Notes under the pieces: generated by a model
What the model was told of the DNA's origin: nothing
Databases searched by the model: none
Seen by the model: only the letters and a program-made list of their open reading frames with translations
Made by a program: the position numbers and the translations under genes
Assembly: GCF_011065485.1 (NCBI RefSeq)
Contig: NZ_JAADJS010000008.1
Location: forward strand, 98,560-122,559
Reading direction: 5' to 3'
Source: Rahnella contaminans
GTDB lineage: Bacteria > Pseudomonadota > Gammaproteobacteria > Enterobacterales > Enterobacteriaceae
Length of the DNA stretch: 24,000 nt
Part shown: positions 7,069-15,725 of the stretch, one piece after another
Layout of the letters: each line of letters begins with the position of its first letter
Numbering within the stretch: the first letter of the stretch is position 1

Positions 7069-8445
7069 ATGGCACTTTGGGGCGGACGTTTTACTCAGGC
7101 AGCAGACCAGCGGTTTAAAGAACTCAATGACTCACTGCGTTTCGATTACCGGCTGGCAGAACAGGATATCGTGGGCTCGGTTGCCTGGTCCAAAGCGCTG
7201 GTGACCGTCAACGTATTAACTGCTGACGAGCAAATCCAGCTGGAAGAAGCCCTGACCGTTTTACTGGAAGAAGTCCGTGCCAATCCCCGCGCTATTTTAG
7301 CCAGCGACGCTGAAGATATTCACAGCTGGGTCGAAGGCAAACTTATCGATAAAGTCGGCAATCTTGGCAAAAAACTGCACACAGGCCGCAGCCGTAACGA
7401 TCAGGTCGCAACCGACATTAAACTGTGGTGTAAAGCGCAGGTCGTCGAACTGGGCGACGCGTTACATCATTTACAACAGGCGCTGGTCGCGACGGCCGAA
7501 GCCAATCAGGACGCCGTGATGCCGGGTTACACCCACCTGCAGCGCGCGCAGCCGGTGACTTTTGCGCACTGGTGTATGGCGTATGTGGAAATGCTGGCGC
7601 GTGATGAAAGCCGCCTGAAAGATACACTGACTCGTCTGGACGTCAGCCCGCTGGGTTGTGGCGCACTGGCCGGTACCGCTTATCCTATGGATCGCGAACA
7701 GCTGGCAGGCTGGCTGGGATTTGCCTCTGCGACCCGTAACAGCCTCGACAGCGTGTCTGACCGCGACCACGTGCTGGAACTGTTGTCCAACGCCGCCATC
7801 AGCATGGTTCACCTTTCCCGTTTCGCCGAAGATCTGATTTTCTTCAACACCGGCGAAGCGGCGTTTATTGATTTGTCCGACCGCGTGACGTCCGGCTCTT
7901 CCCTGATGCCGCAGAAGAAAAACCCGGATGCGCTGGAGCTGATCCGTGGCAAATGTGGTCGTGTGCAGGGCGCACTGACCGGCATGATGATGACCATGAA
8001 AGGCCTGCCGCTGGCGTACAACAAAGACATGCAGGAAGACAAAGAAGGGCTGTTCGACGCGCTCGATACCTGGCTGGATTGCCTGAACATGGCATCTCTG
8101 GTACTGGACGGGATTCAGGTGAAACGTCCGCGTGCAAAAGAAGCCGCGCAGCAGGGTTACGCGAATTCTACCGAACTGGCGGATTATCTGGTTGCCAAAG
8201 GCGTGCCGTTCCGTGAAGCGCACCATATTGTGGGTGAAGCGGTGGTCGAAGCGATTCATCAGGGCAAAGCGCTGGAAGAATTGCCGCTGGCGGATTTGCA
8301 GAAATTCAGCAGCGTGATTGGCAATGACGTTTACGCCATTCTCGAACTGCAATCCTGTCTTGATAAACGTGCGGCCAAAGGTGGTGTTTCTCCGCAGCAG
8401 GTGGCGCAGGCCATTGCGGACGCGAAAGCGCGTTTGGGTTTTTAA
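7069..8445 (+). CDS. argH: Argininosuccinate lyase (458 aa)
   Basis: [34 protein letters not shown]... contains the fumarate-lyase signature [14 protein letters not shown] aggagcagg lies upstream of the ATG. The ORF is colinear with E. coli ArgH as recalled. Confidence 0.97.
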
Positions 8446-8455
8446 GCCTTCCGGC

Positions 8456-8479
8456 TTCTCCCCCTGTGAAGGGGGAGAA
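8456..8479. terminator. Perfect 10-bp hairpin with GUGA tetraloop between convergent argH and the M24 peptidase gene
   Basis: ttctccccct (8456-8465), loop gtga, agggggagaa (8470-8479). It lies 10 nt after the argH stop and 7 nt after the peptidase stop. No U-tract on either strand, so the function (terminator versus RNA-stabilising element) is uncertain. Confidence 0.45.
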
Positions 8480-8486
8480 AATCACT

Positions 8487-9554
8487 TCAGAAACAGATGT
8501 CTTTCCACGCCCGGGGGCTGTGCGTCAGTACCTCGCTGCCCGTTTCCGTCACCAGCACGTCATCTTCAATTCTCACGCCGCCCAGACCCGGCACATAAAT
8601 TCCCGGCTCGATGGTGATGATCATTCCCGGTTCCAGCTGCTGCGCATTTTGCGGGCTGAGCGCCAGCGCTTCGTGGACATCCAGCCCTAAACCGTGCCCC
8701 AGATTGTGACTGAAGTACCCGCCAAAACCCGCCGCTGCAATAATATCTCGCGCCACGGCATCAAGTTCCTGACAACGAATTCCCGGCCTGACGGCGTCAC
8801 GTGCGGACTGCTGGGCGAGAAGTACCGTGTCATAAATTGCTTTCAGTTCCGCGCTGACGTTGCCCAGTGCGAAAGTGCGCGTCATATCCGAACAGTAATG
8901 CTGATACACCGCGCCGAAATCTATCGTCACCAGTTCACCGGTCATCAGCTTTTTATCGGTCGGACGCCCGTGTGGCAACGCGCCGCGCAGGCCAGAAACC
9001 ACCACGGTATCGAACGACGTTTTACTGCCGCCAGCTTGTCTCACCGCCATTTCGAGATGATCCGCCAGCGTTTTTTCGCTGATACCTGGCCTGATAAACG
9101 GGATAACCTTTTCCAGCGCGCGGTCAGCAATTGCCGCAGCCTCACGTATTTTGGCGATTTCATCGGGATATTTATGCACGCGCAAAAACGACATATCCCG
9201 GTGTTGCAGCGTCACGTTGCACTGTTTTTCCAGCGCCTGCCACGCAAGATGCGATAACTGGCTGGCATCTGCAAACAACGGTTTACCGGGGATCAGCCGT
9301 TTAATCACATCCGCGAGCGGGTTTTCGGCGGTCAGCGTCAGCACCTCAACGTCCGGGTTGTTCTGCCGGCATTCGGCGCTGTAGCGGCCATCGACCAAAA
9401 TCCACAGGTCGGCTGGCGTAACCAGCACATACCCCGACGCGCTGTACAGTTCTGTTACCGCGTACTTGCTGAACCTGTCGGTCAGAAGCACGGCGGGTAG
9501 GTGCTGTTCCTGCATAAGCTGGCGCAGAACGCCCAGACGTTGCTGACGACTCAT
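8487..9554 (-). CDS. M24-family aminopeptidase (Xaa-Pro aminopeptidase / YpdF-like, 355 aa)
   Basis: The pita-bread fold metal-ligand context is intact: VTIDFGAVYQHYCSDMTRT, HNLGHGLGLDVHE, ITIEPGIY, GVRIEDDVLVT. Overall it resembles E. coli YpdF as recalled. SD ggaga lies 5-6 nt before the ATG. No signal peptide is evident. Confidence 0.9.
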   Translation of the reverse strand: MSRQQRLGVLRQLMQEQHLPAVLLTDRFSKYAVTELYSASGYVLVTPADLWILVDGRYSAECRQNNPDVEVLTLTAENPLADVIKRLIPGKPLFADASQLSHLAWQALEKQCNVTLQHRDMSFLRVHKYPDEIAKIREAAAIADRALEKVIPFIRPGISEKTLADHLEMAVRQAGGSKTSFDTVVVSGLRGALPHGRPTDKKLMTGELVTIDFGAVYQHYCSDMTRTFALGNVSAELKAIYDTVLLAQQSARDAVRPGIRCQELDAVARDIIAAAGFGGYFSHNLGHGLGLDVHEALALSPQNAQQLEPGMIITIEPGIYVPGLGGVRIEDDVLVTETGSEVLTHSPRAWKDICF

Positions 9555-9568
9555 TATTTTCTCCGGGT

Positions 9569-10804
9569 TCAGGCGACGTCGAGCAGCCCTTTTTTGATTA
9601 AACGGTTACGGTAGAACACGCAGGTCACGGCGATAAACAGCGAACCGCCCGCCAGACCCATCAGGTAGGCCGGAATGTTGCTGACCAGCGGCCATGCCCA
9701 GATGGCGGATTCCGGGAACCATTGCACGGCACCCAGTGAAACCCCGAGCAGCGCGCCGATAATTGCCCCCACCACGTATACCGGAATGACAAACCCCGGA
9801 CGTTCCAGCGCAAACGGAATCGAGCCTTCGGAAATCCCCATAAAACCGAGGAAAATCGCGGTGCGGCCAATCTGATTGAACTGGCGATCGTAAACACGCC
9901 GCCCGACCAGCCATTTGTCGATCACCGTAGACAGCCCGAGGCCGAACGAAGGAATAACGACCGCCAGACAGCGCGCGGTTATCGGCAACACTTTTTCCGT
10001 CGTAAAGCCGAGCGCCACAAACCCGGCGGCTTTGTTCACCGGTCCGCCGAGATCAAACGCCGTCGCCGCTGCCAGTAAGGTGGCGTAGAAATATGTGCCC
10101 GCCGCGCCTGCGGCCTGTAACGCTTCACGGATGAGCGTGTTCAGCCAGCCGCCGATTGGGGTTATCAGGAAAACCATCAGTAACATCGCGACAATGGCGG
10201 AAATCAGCGGGATGAAAAATGTGGTTTTGAACGCCAGCCAGTTGTGCGGCAGTTTGATGGTGTTGTTCAGCCAGCGGACGAAATACCCGACCACAAACGC
10301 GATCACGATAGCACCCAGAAAGCCCGAAGCGACCGGCGCAGCGGCGGCCCATTCACCATTGATCAGAGCCGGAATGGCGACAGGTTTAATCGAGACATAA
10401 CCGCCGATAAACCCGGCCGCCAGCGCCGTTTTTCCGCCGATGGAGTTGGCGGTAAATGCTGAGAACATCGGAATGGCGAAGCCAAAAAGCGTGAAACCGA
10501 AGCTTTCCATGATGCTGGCGATTTGCAGCATCCAGACCGAACTGCCGCTGTATCGCCCGCTGTTGAGCGCACCCATAATGGATTCGTCCGGCGACATTCC
10601 CAGAAAAACATAAGGAATGATTTGCGACAGCGCGCCAATCAGACCGCCCATGATCAGCACCGGGATCATGTAGGAAATACCGGTCATGATGTGTTTGCTA
10701 AATTCTTTCCAGGCATGGCTCTGGCCTTTACCTGCAGGCCCCGCAGGCGGTGTGTCGGATGCCTGACTGTGACCGGTATTAATGACTCTTTTTCTTATCG
10801 CCAC
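9569..10804 (-). CDS. PTS fructose-family EIIC permease component (411 aa, GTG start)
   Basis: Polytopic membrane protein with the Fru-family EIIC opening KEFSKHIMTGISYMIPVLIMGGLIGAL. Resembles FryC/FrvB/FruA IIC domains as recalled. A GTG start at 10804 sits 6 nt after a strong SD GAGGAG. The N-terminal ~35 aa is a Pro/Ala/Gly-rich linker-like tail. Confidence 0.9.
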   Translation of the reverse strand: MAIRKRVINTGHSQASDTPPAGPAGKGQSHAWKEFSKHIMTGISYMIPVLIMGGLIGALSQIIPYVFLGMSPDESIMGALNSGRYSGSSVWMLQIASIMESFGFTLFGFAIPMFSAFTANSIGGKTALAAGFIGGYVSIKPVAIPALINGEWAAAAPVASGFLGAIVIAFVVGYFVRWLNNTIKLPHNWLAFKTTFFIPLISAIVAMLLMVFLITPIGGWLNTLIREALQAAGAAGTYFYATLLAAATAFDLGGPVNKAAGFVALGFTTEKVLPITARCLAVVIPSFGLGLSTVIDKWLVGRRVYDRQFNQIGRTAIFLGFMGISEGSIPFALERPGFVIPVYVVGAIIGALLGVSLGAVQWFPESAIWAWPLVSNIPAYLMGLAGGSLFIAVTCVFYRNRLIKKGLLDVA

Positions 10805-10840
10805 GGAAAACTCCTCGCGCTTAAAAAAGCAAAAGTGGGA

Positions 10841-11161
10841 TCACTGAGCCTGATCGGCCTCAATCTCATCAATCAGTCCGCCGGCATTTTTCACCGCATC
10901 TTTCAGTTCAACTTCATACACTTCGACGCCGTTAAAACGCTCGATATTTTGCGGCGTAATACCGGTGGCATGGATGATGACTGTGGCCTGCGCGATATCT
11001 TCTGCCGTCAGTTCGTTCTGAATACCGTCGGCACCCTGCGTTTCAATTTTCACGTCATAACCGCGCTGGCGGGCGGCGACTTCAATGGCTTCGGCTGCCA
11101 TAAAGGTATGAGCAAGACCCATCGGGCAGGCGCACAGCGCAATCAGTTTTTTTGCAGACAT
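10841..11161 (-). CDS. PTS fructose-family EIIB component (106 aa)
   Basis: KKLIALCACPMGLAHTFMAAEAIE carries the phosphorylatable Cys in the CP(x)G(x)AHT-type motif of EIIB(Fru). The size matches FryB-like proteins. The ATG lies 6 nt after the upstream M20 stop, with its SD inside that gene. Confidence 0.9.
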   Translation of the reverse strand: MSAKKLIALCACPMGLAHTFMAAEAIEVAARQRGYDVKIETQGADGIQNELTAEDIAQATVIIHATGITPQNIERFNGVEVYEVELKDAVKNAGGLIDEIEADQAQ

Positions 11162-11167
11162 CGTGAA

Positions 11168-12553
11168 TTACCTCGTGTTATCGGAAGGAGCGGCGGGCAG
11201 ATTTGCCAGCCGGTAAAGGGCTTCGGCGTAGATGCCGATGGCGCTGATAAAACGGCTCAGGCTGCCGTATTCGTCCGCACCGTGTGTATTGCCGGAAGAG
11301 CCGTCGGGAAATTCGCAGCCAAAAATCACCGCGTTTTGCATTGCGCTGGCGTAACTGCCTGCGCCGGTGGTGCGCGACGGGTGGTTTGTATCGCCGGTAT
11401 GACGGGTGTAAATCTCGTGCAACGTCTTCACCAGCGCGCTGTCCGGCGGATAAAGGCTCGGTGATTTGACCGGCTCAATGCTGATGCGGCTGTCGGGCCA
11501 GCTGAGATTCCAGAGCGTAAGCCGTTCAGCGATGTATTCCGGGGTCAGGTTTTCGGGATAACGGACGTTCAGCGTCAGCGACACCATCCCGTTTTTGATG
11601 TTCAGTACGACGGGAACCAGCAGGATCTGACCGCATTCTCCCGGCGTATCCAGCGCGAATTGCACGCCGCTCTGGCCGGTTTCCGGCGCGGTGATTTCGC
11701 AAAGTTGTTGTGTCCAGCGTGCGCTGAAACGTTGATGAAGTAGTTGCGCGGCACCGGCAATCGGATTAAGGCAGGCCTCCGGTTTTGAGGAGTGTCCGCC
11801 GCGACCATAAAGCTGCCAGTGATTAATTTGTCCCGGTTCGGCCAGCAACGTAAAACCGTCGGGTAACGTCCAGCCGCCAGAGGAGAGCGACAATCCGTTC
11901 AGCCGGGCGACGTCAGGGATGGTGTTCAGCACGCTGCCGCAGGACACGGTCAAACCAGGCTGTTCAACCGGGGACGTCAGCGTGACCAGCAAAGAGCCTT
12001 TTTCGCCGTAAATCACCGGGAATTTTCCGTCCGGCGTAAAAGCAAAAGCAGGTTGCGGCTGCGATTCAAAATAGCGGCGAATGCAGCGGAAACCACTCTC
12101 TTCGTTGCCGCCCGCCACCAGCCGGATGCGGCGTGAGAGAGGAAGATTCAGTTCACGCAGAATATCCAGCGCCAGCCAGGCGGCAATCATCGGGCCTTTG
12201 TCATCCACGACGCCGCGACCGATCAGATTGTCGCCCAGCCGCGAGAGCTGATACGGCGGAAAATGCCAGCCGTCACCGGCGGGAACCACGTCAGCGTGAC
12301 CAAAGACATACACGATTTCCTCGCCGCTGCCGTATTCAATATGCACGGCGTGGTTGTCGACATTGAGTGTGTTCAGCCCGGCGTCGTCGCCGAGTTTTTG
12401 CCACCAGCTGAGCGCGTCGGCAACGCCGCGGCCAAAAGGCGCATCCGGCTGTAGGCTGGCAGCGTCGAACGGCGAAGGGATCGCCACCCACTGGGCGAGT
12501 AAGGTGAGAAAATGCTGCGCCCGATCCCGGGCATGCGCTGCGAAGTCAGTCAT
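11168..12553 (-). CDS. M20-family dipeptidase (PepV/Sapep-like metallohydrolase, ~461 aa)
   Basis: M20 motifs are present: VFGHADVVPAG, GRGVVDDKGP, LVAGGNEESG. The ~460 aa length is typical of PepV-type dipeptidases with a lid domain. The ORF track starts at TTG 12577. I prefer ATG 12553 (MTDFAAHARD...) because the TTG lies inside a palindromic candidate operator. Confidence 0.85.
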   Translation of the reverse strand: MTDFAAHARDRAQHFLTLLAQWVAIPSPFDAASLQPDAPFGRGVADALSWWQKLGDDAGLNTLNVDNHAVHIEYGSGEEIVYVFGHADVVPAGDGWHFPPYQLSRLGDNLIGRGVVDDKGPMIAAWLALDILRELNLPLSRRIRLVAGGNEESGFRCIRRYFESQPQPAFAFTPDGKFPVIYGEKGSLLVTLTSPVEQPGLTVSCGSVLNTIPDVARLNGLSLSSGGWTLPDGFTLLAEPGQINHWQLYGRGGHSSKPEACLNPIAGAAQLLHQRFSARWTQQLCEITAPETGQSGVQFALDTPGECGQILLVPVVLNIKNGMVSLTLNVRYPENLTPEYIAERLTLWNLSWPDSRISIEPVKSPSLYPPDSALVKTLHEIYTRHTGDTNHPSRTTGAGSYASAMQNAVIFGCEFPDGSSGNTHGADEYGSLSRFISAIGIYAEALYRLANLPAAPSDNTR

Positions 12554-12574
12554 TGACGTTAACCATCCGAAAAA

Positions 12575-12613
12575 CAATGCTCACAGCATTGGGGCTGGCG
12601 GAAAAACCGTCAA
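12575..12613 (-). promoter_or_regulatory. Candidate promoter plus palindromic operator of the peptidase/PTS operon
   Basis: On the minus strand: TTGACG (12613-12608), a 17-nt spacer, then AATGCT (12590-12585). The perfect inverted repeat caatgct-cac-agcattg (12575-12591) overlaps the -10 and the predicted start site, the classic position for a repressor operator (the LacI-family protein encoded just upstream). Confidence 0.4.
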
Positions 12614-12667
12614 AAGGCAGGGTTCAGAATTGATAAATAAAACGGGTAAAATTTTTCGCCGGTTTTT

Positions 12668-13690
12668 TTAAGCAGAAGCGAGAAACGCCGGAGATACCTT
12701 CAGACGCGGGTCGTCAGGCAATAATGACTCTCCGGCCAGTTGCGCATGCAGGCATTCCACTGCCCGTGTCGCCATCTCGGTATGACGTGTGGCAACCAGA
12801 GGCAAAGCCAGTTTCAGGGAATGTTCGCACTCGCCGAAACCAGCCAGAGCGATGCGCCGCGAGAACAGCCGCCATCGGGAGGTTTGCAAACCTTCGGCCA
12901 GCGCGTGATGCGCGGCCAGTAATACCGTCGGGTTGTCGCAAAGGATCGCGGAAATTTTGGGGCTTTGTTTAATGAGCTGAGTGACTGCGCGGAAGCTGTC
13001 GTCAAATGTCGCTGCACAGGGCTGACTTAACGATGCGGAAAACGCCAGACCGGCTTTCCCGAGCGCGAGCGAAAGGCCGCCCAGCCGCTCGGCGCGAACC
13101 AGCGAATGATTTTCCCCGCCGAGATAACCAATATTCAGGTGCTGTTGTTGAAGTAACGCATCCGTTGCCATGTGTGCGCCCAGCGCATTGTCGGGATGAA
13201 TTGTCGCGAGCGGACCGGTATGGAAATGCGTGCCGACGCCGGTCAGCGCCACATGCCGCGCCGTCGCCCGCGCATGCAGGGCTTTCAGCGTATCAGGCTG
13301 CGCATTGAGTAATTTCCCGCAGACGAAAATCCCGCGCACGTCCTGCGCCAGAAGCTGCGCGGCGTGCTCCAGAAGCGTTGAGGTGTCTGCGTAGCCCGGT
13401 ATAAGTGTGAAGCCGGTTTGTTGCAGCGCGCAGGACAATTCGGGGAGTAAACCGGCGGCGAAAGCGCAATCTGGTGAAAGCAGAATGCCCGTTCGTGTGA
13501 AAGGTGCGACTGACGGTGTGGCCGGTAAACGGTAACCGAGCTGATCGATGGCCTGATAAATGCGCTCCACGCCTTCGGGGGATATCCGTCCTTTGCCGCC
13601 AAGCACCAGCGAAACCGCAGCAACGGAAACGCCTGCCAGACGCGCGACATCCTGCTGAGTGATTTTTGTGCGGGGCTTTTGCGCCGTCAT
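12668..13690 (-). CDS. LacI-family transcriptional regulator (~340 aa)
   Basis: N-terminal HTH ITQQDVARLAGVSVAAVSLVLGGKGRISPEGVERIYQAIDQLGYR, followed by a type-I periplasmic-binding-protein-like sugar-binding domain. I place the start at ATG 13690 (MTAQKPRTKITQQD...). The longer ORF to 13771 would run through the upstream terminator. Confidence 0.85.
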   Translation of the reverse strand: MTAQKPRTKITQQDVARLAGVSVAAVSLVLGGKGRISPEGVERIYQAIDQLGYRLPATPSVAPFTRTGILLSPDCAFAAGLLPELSCALQQTGFTLIPGYADTSTLLEHAAQLLAQDVRGIFVCGKLLNAQPDTLKALHARATARHVALTGVGTHFHTGPLATIHPDNALGAHMATDALLQQQHLNIGYLGGENHSLVRAERLGGLSLALGKAGLAFSASLSQPCAATFDDSFRAVTQLIKQSPKISAILCDNPTVLLAAHHALAEGLQTSRWRLFSRRIALAGFGECEHSLKLALPLVATRHTEMATRAVECLHAQLAGESLLPDDPRLKVSPAFLASA

Positions 13691-13764
13691 CGTCCTGCCA
13701 TACGGAATAAATTGACCGCAAAGTGTTGCAGGAGAAGGTCGGGAAAAAACGGGCTGAGATCGCA

Positions 13765-13797
13765 GAAACAAAAAATGGCGGGCACTAAGCCCGCCGA
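13765..13797 (-). terminator. Intrinsic terminator of the peroxiredoxin-glutaredoxin gene
   Basis: Read on the minus strand: ggcgggc (13795-13789), loop ttagt, gcccgcc (13783-13777), then ATTTTTTGTTT. Confidence 0.8.
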
Positions 13798-13879: not shown

Positions 13880-14641
13880 TTATTGTGCAACTTCGCACAC
13901 TTCTTGTGTTTCTGAATGCAGGTAAACGTCCAGATCGTCGCTTCCGCCGATGTGGCGCCCACCAATAAAGACTTGCGGCACGGTCGCACGGCCGGTGACA
14001 GCGCGCAGGCTGACGGTGGTGGCGTCTTTGCCCAGTACGATTTCTTCATACTGAATACCGCGTTCCTGCAACATCTGTTTGGCTTTGGCACAGAACGGGC
14101 AGCCCGGTTTGGTGAATACGGAAACCGATTCCTGCACTTTGTATTCGGGTGCCAGGTATTTCAGCATTGTGTCTGCATCTGACACTTCAAACGGGTCGCC
14201 CGGCTTGTTTGGCTCAACGAACATTTTCTCGACCACGCCGTTACGTACCAGCATGGAATAACGCCATGAACGCGGGCCGAAACCTAAATCCGCTTTCTCG
14301 ACCAGCATGTCCATGCCTTTGGTGAATTCACCGTTGCCGTCCGGAATAAAGGTAATGTTCGATGCCTTCTGTTCTGATTTCCAGGCATTCATGACGAACG
14401 TGTCGTTAACAGAGACGCACAGAATGCTGTCGACGCCGTGTTGTCTGAACACCGGTGCAAGTTCGTTGTAACGCGGCAGATGGCTTGAAGAACAGGTCGG
14501 GGTAAATGCACCCGGCAGTGAAAAGACAATCACTGTTTTGTTTTTGAACAATTCATCGGTGCTGAGATCTACCCACTGATCGCCCTGGCGGGTGTGAAAA
14601 GTAACGTGCGGTACGTATTTCCCTTCCTGGCTTGCAAACAT
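13880..14641 (-). CDS. Hybrid peroxiredoxin (Prx5 type)-glutaredoxin fusion protein (253 aa)
   Basis: The N-terminal Prx5 domain has the peroxidatic Cys in [10 protein letters not shown]. The C-terminal Grx domain has the CPFC active site ([13 protein letters not shown]) and [14 protein letters not shown]. This architecture is that of H. influenzae PGdx and V. cholerae PrxA. SD aagagg lies before the ATG. Confidence 0.9.
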
Positions 14642-14801: not shown

Positions 14802-15725
14802 ATGAACATTCGTGATTTAGAGTATCTTGTGGCACTGGCAGAGTTCCGCCATTTTCGTCGTGCAGCAGATTCCTGCCATGTCAGCCAGCCGACGTTAAGC
14901 GGGCAAATCCGTAAGCTGGAAGATGAACTGGGCGTGATGCTGCTTGAAAGAACCAGTCGTAAGGTGCTGTTCACACAAGCCGGTTTACTGCTGGTGGATC
15001 AGGCGCGCACGGTCCTGCGTGAAGTGAAAGTCCTCAAAGAGATGGCCAGCCAGCAGGGCGAAGCGATGTCCGGGCCGATGCATATCGGGCTAATTCCTAC
15101 CGTCGGGCCTTATCTTTTGCCGCAAATCATTCCTTCACTGCATAAAACATTCCCTAAACTCGAAATGTATCTGCACGAAGCGCAAACCCATCAGTTGCTG
15201 GCTCAGCTCGACAGCGGGAAGCTCGATTGTGCGATTCTGGCGCTGGTCAAAGAGAGCGAAGCTTTTATTGAAGTGCCGCTGTTTGATGAGCCGATGAAAC
15301 TGGCGATCTACGACGATCATCCGTGGGCATCACGCGATCGCGTGGCGATGGCGGATCTGGCCGGTGAAAAGCTGCTGATGCTGGAAGACGGACATTGTCT
15401 GCGCGATCAGGCGCTCGGTTTTTGCTTCCAGGCAGGGGCGGACGAAGATACGCATTTCCGCGCAACCAGTCTGGAAACGCTGCGGAATATGGTAGCGGCG
15501 GGAAGTGGCATTACCTTGCTGCCTTCGCTGGCCGTGCCGAATGAGCGCAGCCGCGATGGCGTCACGTATCTGACGTGTGACAAACCGGAACCCCGTCGCA
15601 CGATCGCGCTGGTATATCGTCCCGGTTCGCCACTGCGTGGGCGCTATGAACAACTGGCTGAAGCCATCAAAGAGCACATGCAACCTTATATGGATAAAGC
15701 CGCGGGCTTAAAAAAGGCGGTTTAA
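14802..15725 (+). CDS. oxyR: Hydrogen-peroxide-sensing LysR-family regulator OxyR (307 aa)
   Basis: [61 protein letters not shown]... is nearly identical to E. coli OxyR as recalled. The redox Cys context [11 protein letters not shown] is present. SD ggagg is at 14793-14797. The ORF-track start at 14724 is an upstream in-frame extension. Confidence 0.97.

Follow-up and report, generated by a model that had tools for sequence, protein, structure and literature searches.

Between argH and oxyR, Rahnella contaminans carries a block of five minus-strand genes that combines a phosphotransferase system (PTS) permease of the fructose (Fru) family with two metallopeptidases. We studied the block in a stretch of 24,000 nucleotides (nt) of contig NZ_JAADJS010000008.1 (assembly GCF_011065485.1), called the window below. 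Read in the direction of transcription, the genes encode a LacI-family regulator, an M20 dipeptidase, the permease subunits EIIB and EIIC, and an M24 aminopeptidase (Table 1). All five open reading frames (ORFs) lie where an original prediction, made from the sequence alone, had put them. The predicted insertion between argH and oxyR also held, but its exact site had to be corrected: because a peroxiredoxin-glutaredoxin (PrxGrx) gene, divergent from oxyR, is the immediate neighbor on the oxyR side, the insertion point is PrxGrx/argH and not oxyR/argH. In Escherichia coli K-12, argH, oxyS, and oxyR are adjacent, as the prediction had stated.

The four structural genes are separated by 6 bp (M20/EIIB), 36 bp (EIIB/EIIC), and 14 bp (EIIC/M24). 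These gaps were read directly from the sequence, as were the Shine-Dalgarno motifs of EIIB (GAGG within the last codons of M20), EIIC (GAGGAG, 6 nt ahead of the GTG), and M24 (GGAG, 7 nt ahead of the ATG). The spacing supports the earlier view that M20-EIIB-EIIC-M24 forms one tightly packed, operon-like unit adjoining the LacI-type gene, and the four genes are probably cotranscribed. A search for internal terminators and promoters that would split the unit gave terminator-like matches no commoner than expected from shuffled sequence. The ATG start of M20 is kept across 11 Rahnella-lineage sequences (in the ORF list, the frame runs on to a TTG at 12577), and the regulator was counted from its ATG at 13690 (the listed frame runs on to 13771). 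Translated from its GTG, EIIC begins with MAIRKR, compared with MAIKKR in FryC of E. coli.

Pfam and NCBIfam profile searches bore out the predicted protein families. The M20 protein matched Peptidase_M20 and scored above the cutoff of the Sapep model TIGR01887 (304 bits; cutoff, 208), and it did not reach that of the PepV equivalog NF005591 (314; cutoff, 435). Its matches in the Protein Data Bank (PDB) were Sapep (3khx and 3ki9) and PepV (1lfw). EIIB matched PTS_IIB and TIGR00829 (100.9 bits, above the cutoff of 76.85), EIIC matched PTS_EIIC and TIGR01427, and the M24 protein matched Peptidase_M24 (5.9e-74) and Creatinase_N. All three stayed below the cutoffs of more specific models: PRK10474 for EIIB (113.7; cutoff, 135), the FryC-type PRK10478 for EIIC (131; cutoff, 426), and PRK09795, the nearest NCBIfam model for M24 (333 bits; cutoff, 393). 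The regulator consists of a LacI helix-turn-helix domain (PF00356, 8.1e-13) and a Peripla_BP_1 domain (PF00532, 1.1e-11). Its nearest NCBIfam model is MalI (NF007449), on which it scored 163.5 bits without reaching the subfamily cutoff of 310.

The catalytic motifs are intact, as predicted. The M20 protein carries HADVVPAGDGW, DDKGP, NEES, TPDG, and HGADEY, and its H-x-D, DDKG, EE, PD, and H-x-x-x-E-Y residues align with those of Sapep 3khx. The M24 protein has DFG, SDMTRT, HGLG, EPG, and RIED in alignment with YpdF (5cnx, its best PDB match), and the active-site cysteine motif of EIIB, CACPMGLAHTFMAA, is the same as in FryB. Judged from the look of their N termini and their homology to cytosolic enzymes, neither peptidase has a signal peptide.

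In agreement with the prediction, tblastn of the 24-kb window gave no match to EIIA, HPr, EI, or FryA, and the block contains no deglycase, kinase, or aldolase. The window also gave no tblastn match to an M42 peptidase (query, YpdE, a Peptidase_M42 protein). A PatB-family lyase was matched neither in the window nor within ~21 kb of any Rahnella locus. Neither the window nor any Rahnella-lineage locus has a PRD/Mga-type regulator or a separate EIIA(Fru).

Table 1. Coordinates of the block and of neighboring features, numbered from the first letter of the window
Feature	Position	Strand	Remarks
argH	7069-8445	+	flanks the block
GC-rich hairpin CTCCCCC-TTCACA-GGGGGAG	8458-8477	-	directly past M24 stop; right-hand edge of insert
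M24 aminopeptidase, YpdF-like, 355 aa	8487-9554	-	last gene of predicted operon
PTS EIIC, Fru family, FryC-like, 411 aa	9569-10804	-	GTG start
PTS EIIB, Fru type, FryB-like, 106 aa	10841-11161	-	Cys motif CACPMGLAHT
M20 dipeptidase, Sapep/PepV subgroup, 461 aa	11168-12553	-	first gene of predicted operon
Candidate sigma-70 promoter	12585-12613	-	predicted; TTGACG 12613-12608, 17-nt spacer, AATGCT 12590-12585
Conserved block AAAATTTTACCCGTTTTATTTATC	12632-12655	-	candidate operator of MalI-like regulator
LacI-family regulator, MalI-like, 340 aa	12668-13690	-	counted from ATG at 13690
Upstream region of regulator	13691-13776	-	contains conserved CCTGCnACACTTTGCGG block; left-hand edge of insert
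Intrinsic terminator of PrxGrx gene	13777-13795	-	GGCGGGC-TTAGT-GCCCGCC plus T run
PrxGrx gene	13880-14641	-	Redoxin and Glutaredoxin domains; divergent from oxyR
oxyR/sthA overlap	15708-15725		18 bp; genes converge
Cobalamin riboswitch RF00174	22716-22983	+	72 bits

Relatives and origin of the block

The fry cluster of E. coli had been put forward as merely analogous to the Rahnella block. However, EIIB, EIIC, and M24 are 70%, 53% (over the full length), and 45% identical to FryB, FryC, and YpdF of E. coli K-12, and fry (fryB-fryC-ypdF-ypdE-fryA, b2387-b2383) has the same tightly packed EIIB-EIIC-M24 order and orientation. The two clusters are homologous. None of the three proteins reaches an NCBIfam equivalog cutoff, and they are sister-group homologues, not orthologues, of FryB, FryC, and YpdF. 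A second cytoplasmic exopeptidase belongs to both operons, but in fry it is the M42 enzyme YpdE after M24, whereas Rahnella has M20 before EIIB. Moreover, fry encodes its own EI-HPr-EIIA protein, FryA, of which the window has none; it has no adjacent LacI regulator, and it lies at a different locus, next to glk. The frv (frvABXR) and sgc (sgcX) clusters of E. coli likewise join a PTS permease to a cytoplasmic aminopeptidase. Both have M42 only, without M24 or M20, and the EIIC of sgc belongs to the galactitol family.

Closer relatives were found in Firmicutes. M20 homologues of 71 to 100% identity occurred only in the Rahnella lineage (100% in Rahnella sp. ChDrAdgB13), and the next-best relatives, at 44 to 48%, were all from Firmicutes (Lucifera, Acetonema, Selenomonadales, Clostridium, and Clostridioides difficile). 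The Rahnella EIIC is 69 to 74% identical to the EIICs of the organisms holding these M20 relatives. We surveyed the family by an EIIC scan with one genome per species, which yielded 80 loci that were annotated by tblastn and ORF clustering. Type A clusters have the order M20, PRD regulator, IIA, IIB, IIC, M24, PatB and are held by Pelosinus, Lucifera, Clostridium, C. difficile, Romboutsia, Caloramator, Anaerosolibacter, and others. The PRD/Mga regulator of C. difficile and Lucifera carries an EIIA domain and precedes a separate EIIA gene, and the last gene there is class I/II aminotransferase-like. This last gene encodes a PatB/MalY-family C-S beta-lyase (TIGR04350, 343 bits; cutoff, 340), with PatB, cystalysin, and MalY as best PDB matches, and the Firmicutes PRD regulator matches the FrvR model at 78 bits. 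Type B clusters (PRD regulator, IIA, IIB, IIC, M24, M42, PatB) occur in Lachnospiraceae, Caproiciproducens, Erysipelotrichaceae, and Thermoanaerobacterales, and type C clusters (IIB, IIC, M24, M42, FryA) occur in E. coli, Citrobacter, and Buttiauxella. Type D (27 loci; Anaerococcus, Leptotrichia, Granulicatella, Hungatella, and others) consists of IIA, IIB, IIC, and a GH38 alpha-mannosidase assigned by Pfam.

Across the 80 loci, M24 stands directly after EIIC in 51, and a PatB-family lyase follows in 36. GH38 takes the place of M24 in 27 loci; the two never occur together, and GH38 is not found in Rahnella. The EIICs of the GH38-linked clusters form the sister group of the type A and Rahnella EIICs (56 to 66% identity). 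In 11 loci, from C. difficile, Romboutsia, Caproiciproducens, and Geosporobacter, the cluster adjoins a mannose-6-phosphate isomerase gene. Type A has M20 as its second peptidase, whereas types B and C have M42. This is a nonhomologous replacement, so the position is exchangeable between unrelated folds. The M20-for-M42 exchange, which the original prediction took for a peculiarity of the Rahnella version, is thus the usual arrangement in many Firmicutes, among them C. difficile (CD2484-CD2490).

Some loci depart from these types. In Streptobacillus (loci L041 and L052), a PatB-like lyase, 46 to 47% identical to that of C. difficile, directly follows IIA-IIB-IIC with no peptidase, and a Mycoplasmatales metagenome-assembled genome (L043) has a weaker lyase match (28%) after EIIC. 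Because the Streptobacillus loci have the lyase next to the permease without a peptidase, the gene orders suggest that permease and lyase form the core of the family and that the peptidases are accessory. Oligopeptide-ABC ATPase-like ORFs (cluster c15, assigned by eye) lie within a few kilobases of EIIC in ~10 related loci (L010, L011, L023, L026, L029, L036, L041, L077, L083, and L084).

Type A clusters such as CD2484-CD2490 contain the four structural genes of Rahnella in the same relative order, with M20 at the head (44 to 48% identical in C. difficile, Lucifera, and Pelosinus). Identities to the Rahnella proteins are 65 to 74% for EIIC, 63 to 72% for EIIB, 39 to 48% for M20, and 39 to 44% for M24. 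Type A also has the PRD/EIIA-domain regulator, the separate EIIA, and the C-S lyase, whereas Rahnella has the MalI-like LacI regulator instead. Trees were built by neighbor joining (NJ), with 100 bootstraps for EIIC. In the EIIC tree, Rahnella is monophyletic (100/100) and its sister group is purely type A (89/100). The smallest clade uniting Rahnella and type A EIICs excludes both type B and the Fry clade in 100/100 replicates, which places the Rahnella EIIC in a clade other than that of the enterobacterial Fry EIICs. The EIIB NJ tree agrees, with Rahnella next to type A and apart from the enterobacterial Fry clade. By gene content and phylogeny, the Rahnella block is a truncated type A derivative: the PRD regulator, the separate EIIA, and the C-S lyase are gone, and it has a MalI-like regulator instead.

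Eight Rahnella species, named or provisional, have the block at the same site and in the same order (oxyR, PrxGrx, LacI, M20, IIB, IIC, M24, argH), and so do two "Enterobacterales" assemblies that are more distant, with an EIIC of 88% identity. In all, ~10 Rahnella-lineage genomes have it at this site. To survey the PrxGrx/argH junction, we scanned metagenomes with the PrxGrx protein. In at least nine Yersiniaceae-like contigs (OxyR 85 to 92% identical), PrxGrx and argH are only ~100 to 140 bp apart and there is no block, which upholds the claim that the block is lineage specific. The insertion part of the prediction, which an ancestral block lost in E. coli would have refuted, stands. The PrxGrx terminator is kept in relatives with and without the cluster. 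In other contigs, the PrxGrx-argH spacer holds unrelated inserts of 1.4 to 3.3 kb. The spacer is an insertion hot spot (L090-L093, L098, L101, L104, L105, L107, and L111); among those with ORF lists, L091, L093, L104, and L107 have a 482- to 521-aa ORF there whose N terminus resembles an FAD/NAD(P)-binding motif (MKQLNVDVAVIGGGTAGLG...), and L093 has two small ORFs besides.

One close relative (L086; Ga0302174_10000022, 9760-10051; OxyR 98% and ArgH 97% identical) is missing the whole block. It keeps the upstream region of the regulator, the first ~6 codons of that gene, and the hairpin after M24. With both edges retained, this junction is a clean deletion scar and a case of secondary loss.

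Composition had been offered as a hint of foreign origin. A GC excess does exist (57.3% in the cluster versus 52.8% in the remaining window), but it amounts to only 4.5 points, and GC at third codon positions is close to that of the flanking genes (0.53 to 0.68 versus 0.59 to 0.62), so we rejected composition as evidence of recent transfer. The argument for transfer therefore rests on phylogeny and distribution. The Rahnella block is fully adapted in its composition to the host genome. Within the lineage, the ratio of nonsynonymous to synonymous substitution rates (dN/dS) is 0.04 to 0.06 for EIIC, 0.13 to 0.16 for M24, 0.12 to 0.19 for M20, and 0.13 to 0.18 for the regulator (flanking genes, 0.01 to 0.07), and the dS of the cluster genes (0.5 to 1.6) is similar to that of the flanking genes. 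These ratios indicate that the block is under purifying selection. We conclude from the trees and the distribution that it was an old acquisition from a type A Firmicutes-like source into the PrxGrx/argH spacer, in an ancestor of part of the Rahnella lineage, and that it was afterwards inherited vertically under purifying selection with occasional loss.

Compared with Rahnella laticis and Rahnella sp. AA (L005/L014), the window is near identical from oxyR to EIIC (dS, 0.06 to 0.24) and sharply diverged from M24 through argH (dS, 0.81 and 0.50; M24 82% identical). This jump in dS points to a recombination breakpoint between EIIC and M24. In R. laticis SAP-17, ~5 kb of extra sequence (L005, 12592-17215) lies between M24 and argH and holds ORFs of 1,393 and 151 aa; going by N-terminal sequence only, our guess is a PAAR/Rhs-type toxin and its immunity protein.

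Regulator and control region

Homologues of the regulator with more than 50% identity were found only in the Rahnella lineage. The next best were MalI proteins of E. coli and Shimwellia (34 to 35%), with E. coli MalI itself at 34%. As the PrxGrx gene ends in a strong terminator (read as 13795-13777), the regulator likely has its own transcription unit. In the 114-bp spacer ahead of M20, GCCTTTTGAC (the predicted -35 region) and (A/G)ATGCT are kept in all 11 lineage sequences; the candidate -10 hexamer is too weak for a consensus scan.

Farther upstream in the same spacer, the block AAAATTTTACCCGTTTTATTTATC is kept in all 11 lineage sequences and is unique in the window. It aligns to AAAACGTTTTACC--TTTTATTTATC in the E. 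coli malI-malX intergenic region (L166, 5182-5355), in the same orientation to the downstream PTS genes. The alignment score was 30, against a mean of 16.7 (standard deviation, 2.3) for shuffled sequences, of which 1 in 2,000 reached 30. Between the Rahnella block and the E. coli MalI-operator region, 22 aligned bases are identical and the central CG is displaced, and the Rahnella block holds repeated GGTAAAA/ATAAAAC-like half-sites. We regard AAAATTTTACCCGTTTTATTTATC as a candidate operator of the MalI-like regulator. Inverted repeats of >=10 bp were found in neither regulatory region. A 7-3-7 palindrome, CAATGCTGTGAGCATTG (12591-12575), was considered as operator and rejected because it is not conserved in other Rahnella species; a CRP-like TGTGA near it is not conserved either.

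The malI-malX-malY locus of E. coli is the closest known counterpart of the regulator and of its operator-like block. There, MalI controls the PTS permease gene malX and the PatB-family lyase gene malY, and the Firmicutes parent cluster has the same two functions linked. The likeness has limits: malXY pairs its PTS permease with a PatB/MalY-family lyase, which the Rahnella block is without; MalX is a glucose-family EIICB, whereas the Rahnella EIIC belongs to the Fru family; and malI is divergent from malXY, whereas the Rahnella regulator is codirectional with its operon.

Proposed function and alternatives

We propose, with a probability of roughly 55%, that the block is a Fry-type catabolic operon in which EIIBC imports and phosphorylates a conjugate, M24 and M20 remove its amino-acid or peptide part, and a MalI-like repressor exerts control. 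The Fru-family EIIB and EIIC would take up a hydroxyl-bearing conjugate, phosphorylating the sugar on entry, and the YpdF-like M24 and Sapep/PepV-like M20 enzymes (or M42 elsewhere) would trim the amino-acid or peptide part in the cytoplasm. In Firmicutes, PatB would free the sugar phosphate from beta-substituted Ser or Cys by elimination, and mannose-6-phosphate isomerase would pass the product into glycolysis. In Rahnella, the lyase would be needed in trans, EIIB would be phosphorylated by EIIA, HPr, and EI encoded elsewhere in the genome, and the MalI-like LacI repressor encoded immediately upstream would control the operon.

The precedent is MngA/MngB, in which a Fru-family PTS imports mannosylglycerate as a 6-phospho-mannoside and a GH38 enzyme turns it into mannose-6-phosphate plus glycerate (PMC2815779). 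The mngA/mngB genes and the split type D clusters follow the same logic as the Rahnella block, a permease and then a cytosolic hydrolase. They differ in that MngA is a fused EIIABC and in that a glycosidase follows EIIC where Rahnella has a metallopeptidase, which would attack another bond. Because GH38 processes the phospho-glycoside from this very position in the sister clusters, the gene in the slot after EIIC likely acts on the transported molecule. The replacement of GH38 by exopeptidases, together with a beta-lyase in Firmicutes, points to a hexose-bearing conjugate with an amino-acid or peptide part, and the recurrence of mannose-6-phosphate isomerase points to a mannose-like hexose. 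We infer a substrate in which a hexose, most plausibly of mannosyl type, is conjugated to an amino acid or peptide. The sugar-peptide conjugate of the original prediction gains indirect support from a PTS-peptidase linkage kept over large distances, from the mutual replacement of M20 and M42, and from the alternation of M24 with GH38 right after EIIC. A glycated (Amadori) dipeptide, one of the candidates of the original prediction, is disfavored and was dropped as first choice: no SIS/FrlB-type deglycase or fructosamine kinase was found among the five proteins or the recurrent neighbors of the 80 related loci, and no deglycase or kinase occurs in any variant examined. The Amadori/fructosamine systems (frl, gfr, and fra) have the deglycase or kinase that the Rahnella block does not.

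The literature offers expression data and names. In C. difficile, CD2486-88 go under the name "fructose-like PTS," and CD2485 is called a "putative Xaa-Pro aminopeptidase," with no substrate named (PMC3510511; bioRxiv 10.1101/598045). CD2485-CD2488, annotated simply as a fructose-like PTS, are reported to be glucose induced via CcpA (PMC3510511), and up-regulation of the operon during infection is cited in bioRxiv 10.1101/598045. In the open-access papers and preprints, a coverage by which a report in a subscription journal could be missed, PTS-peptidase clusters appear with annotations and expression data only, and we found no substrate for this cluster or its orthologues.

Several observations count against the proposed operon. 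The cluster has no EIIA, so its activity would depend on a cross-talk partner. The Rahnella block has no gene whose product could free a sugar phosphate from an amino acid in O or S linkage, and the open-access literature gave no substrate for any member of the family. Glucose induction of CD2485-CD2488 via CcpA is unusual for a scavenging pathway (PMC3510511). In the NJ tree, the Rahnella M24 falls outside types A, B, and C on a long branch; it is 39 to 48% identical to all of them. The candidate operator is not a clean palindrome, and it is situated upstream of the predicted -35, where a repressor would not usually bind. In R. woolbedingensis DSM 27399, M20 (L006, 8300-9629) falls into two tblastn segments in different frames, as does the regulator of R. 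bruchi DSM 27398 (L071, 7095-8103); each case reflects a frameshift pseudogene or else a mistake in the assembly. Finally, the block was deleted in one close relative (L086), so it is dispensable.

According to the first alternative, which we consider unlikely, EIIBC is a plain PTS for a free fructose- or mannose-like sugar and the peptidases are coregulated housekeeping exopeptidases, so that carbon and nitrogen scavenging would be coupled without any conjugate. YpdF and M42 enzymes do act on ordinary peptides in vitro. In addition, the components are named "fructose-like" in NCBIfam and in the literature (PMC3510511; PMC10305011), and the C. difficile orthologues are glucose induced through CcpA along with other Xaa-Pro peptidases. 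However, EIIC and M24 have stayed neighbors in Firmicutes of different orders, in Enterobacteriaceae, and in Rahnella, and the second peptidase has been swapped between unrelated folds (M20/M42) while the C-S lyase is coconserved. The GH38 that processes an imported phospho-glycoside from the slot after EIIC in sister clusters likewise speaks against independent peptidases.

A substrate without any sugar seems very unlikely. Here, a peptide or amino-acid derivative (a Ser, Thr, or hydroxy-acid dipeptide or a cysteine S-conjugate) would be phosphorylated on a hydroxyl and then processed by the peptidases and, in Firmicutes, by PatB. The coconserved lyase is indeed of the PatB family, oligopeptide-ABC ATPase-like ORFs lie near several clusters, and M20 scores 180 bits on the Cys-Gly-3M3SH dipeptidase model, far below its cutoff of 1025. 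The succession of M20 dipeptidase and PatB lyase is also a characterized route for Cys-Gly S-conjugates: in Staphylococcus hominis, the M20 enzyme PepA trims Cys-Gly-3M3SH so that the PatB C-S lyase can act (PMC11742315, PMC7385124). That pathway uses the same enzyme pair as the Firmicutes parent cluster but has no M24, and the Rahnella block has no lyase. Uptake of Cys-Gly-3M3SH by S. hominis is by a proton-coupled peptide transporter and not by a PTS. To our knowledge, all characterized Fru-family PTS substrates are sugars, polyols, or glycosides, and the pairing of GH38 with sister EIICs and the recurrent mannose-6-phosphate isomerase point to a hexose moiety.

Just as improbable is a cryptic remnant that, stripped of EIIA, PRD regulator, and lyase when it was transferred, has no transport left and is eroding. 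In its favor, there is no EIIA/HPr/EI in the 24-kb window, M20 of R. woolbedingensis and the regulator of R. bruchi have apparent frameshifts, the block is deleted outright in L086 with a scar left behind, and the peptidases and regulator evolve several-fold faster than the flanking genes. Against it, the window and most of the 11 lineage genomes have all five ORFs intact, dN/dS of 0.04 to 0.19 at dS of 0.5 to 1.6 is far from neutral, EIIC is constrained like housekeeping genes, and the promoter- and operator-like blocks are conserved.

The proposed conjugate operon could be extended to the whole family, although we think such an extension doubtful. Fry-type clusters (Rahnella, fry, CD2484-2490, and perhaps malXY) might then serve one pathway for O- or S-hexosyl (mannosyl) amino-acid or peptide conjugates, in which M24 with M20 or M42 would trim the peptide to glycosyl-Ser, -Thr, or -Cys and a PLP lyase of PatB/MalY type, acting in cis in Firmicutes and in trans in Rahnella, would free hexose-6-phosphate by beta-elimination along with pyruvate and ammonia. 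If true, this would amount to glycopeptide catabolism without a glycosidase and would explain several long-cryptic E. coli PTS-peptidase loci.

Annotations of this type of cluster exist already for E. coli and C. difficile. In E. coli, fry, frv, and sgc, each a PTS permease with a cytoplasmic peptidase, have been annotated for decades without a substrate. The gene content of the block itself is unsurprising to a PTS specialist. What is new is a type A gene set without EIIA, PRD regulator, and lyase and with a MalI-like regulator, not a new kind of system. The block joins a large conserved family that includes the C. difficile operon reported to be up-regulated during infection, and it is a case of Firmicutes-to-Enterobacterales transfer in which the regulatory system was replaced. 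The M24/GH38 alternation, the M20/M42 replacement, the linkage to PatB and the isomerase, and the MalI connection make the PTS-peptidase question directly testable, since the comparative pattern yields a short list of candidate substrates and enzyme assays. As a minimal four-gene version with a simple LacI-type switch in a tractable enterobacterium, the Rahnella form could be a convenient experimental handle.

Neighboring features of the window

The PrxGrx gene occupies the place where E. coli has oxyS, and no Rfam match to OxyS was found between it and oxyR, nor any OxyS match elsewhere in the window. The oxyR-PrxGrx pairing recurs in dozens of metagenome contigs (loci L086-L165), down to ~63 to 70% OxyR identity. 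The cobalamin riboswitch is probably the leader of btuB, by synteny with E. coli. The convergent overlap of oxyR and sthA (Table 1) is exactly as annotated in E. coli K-12.

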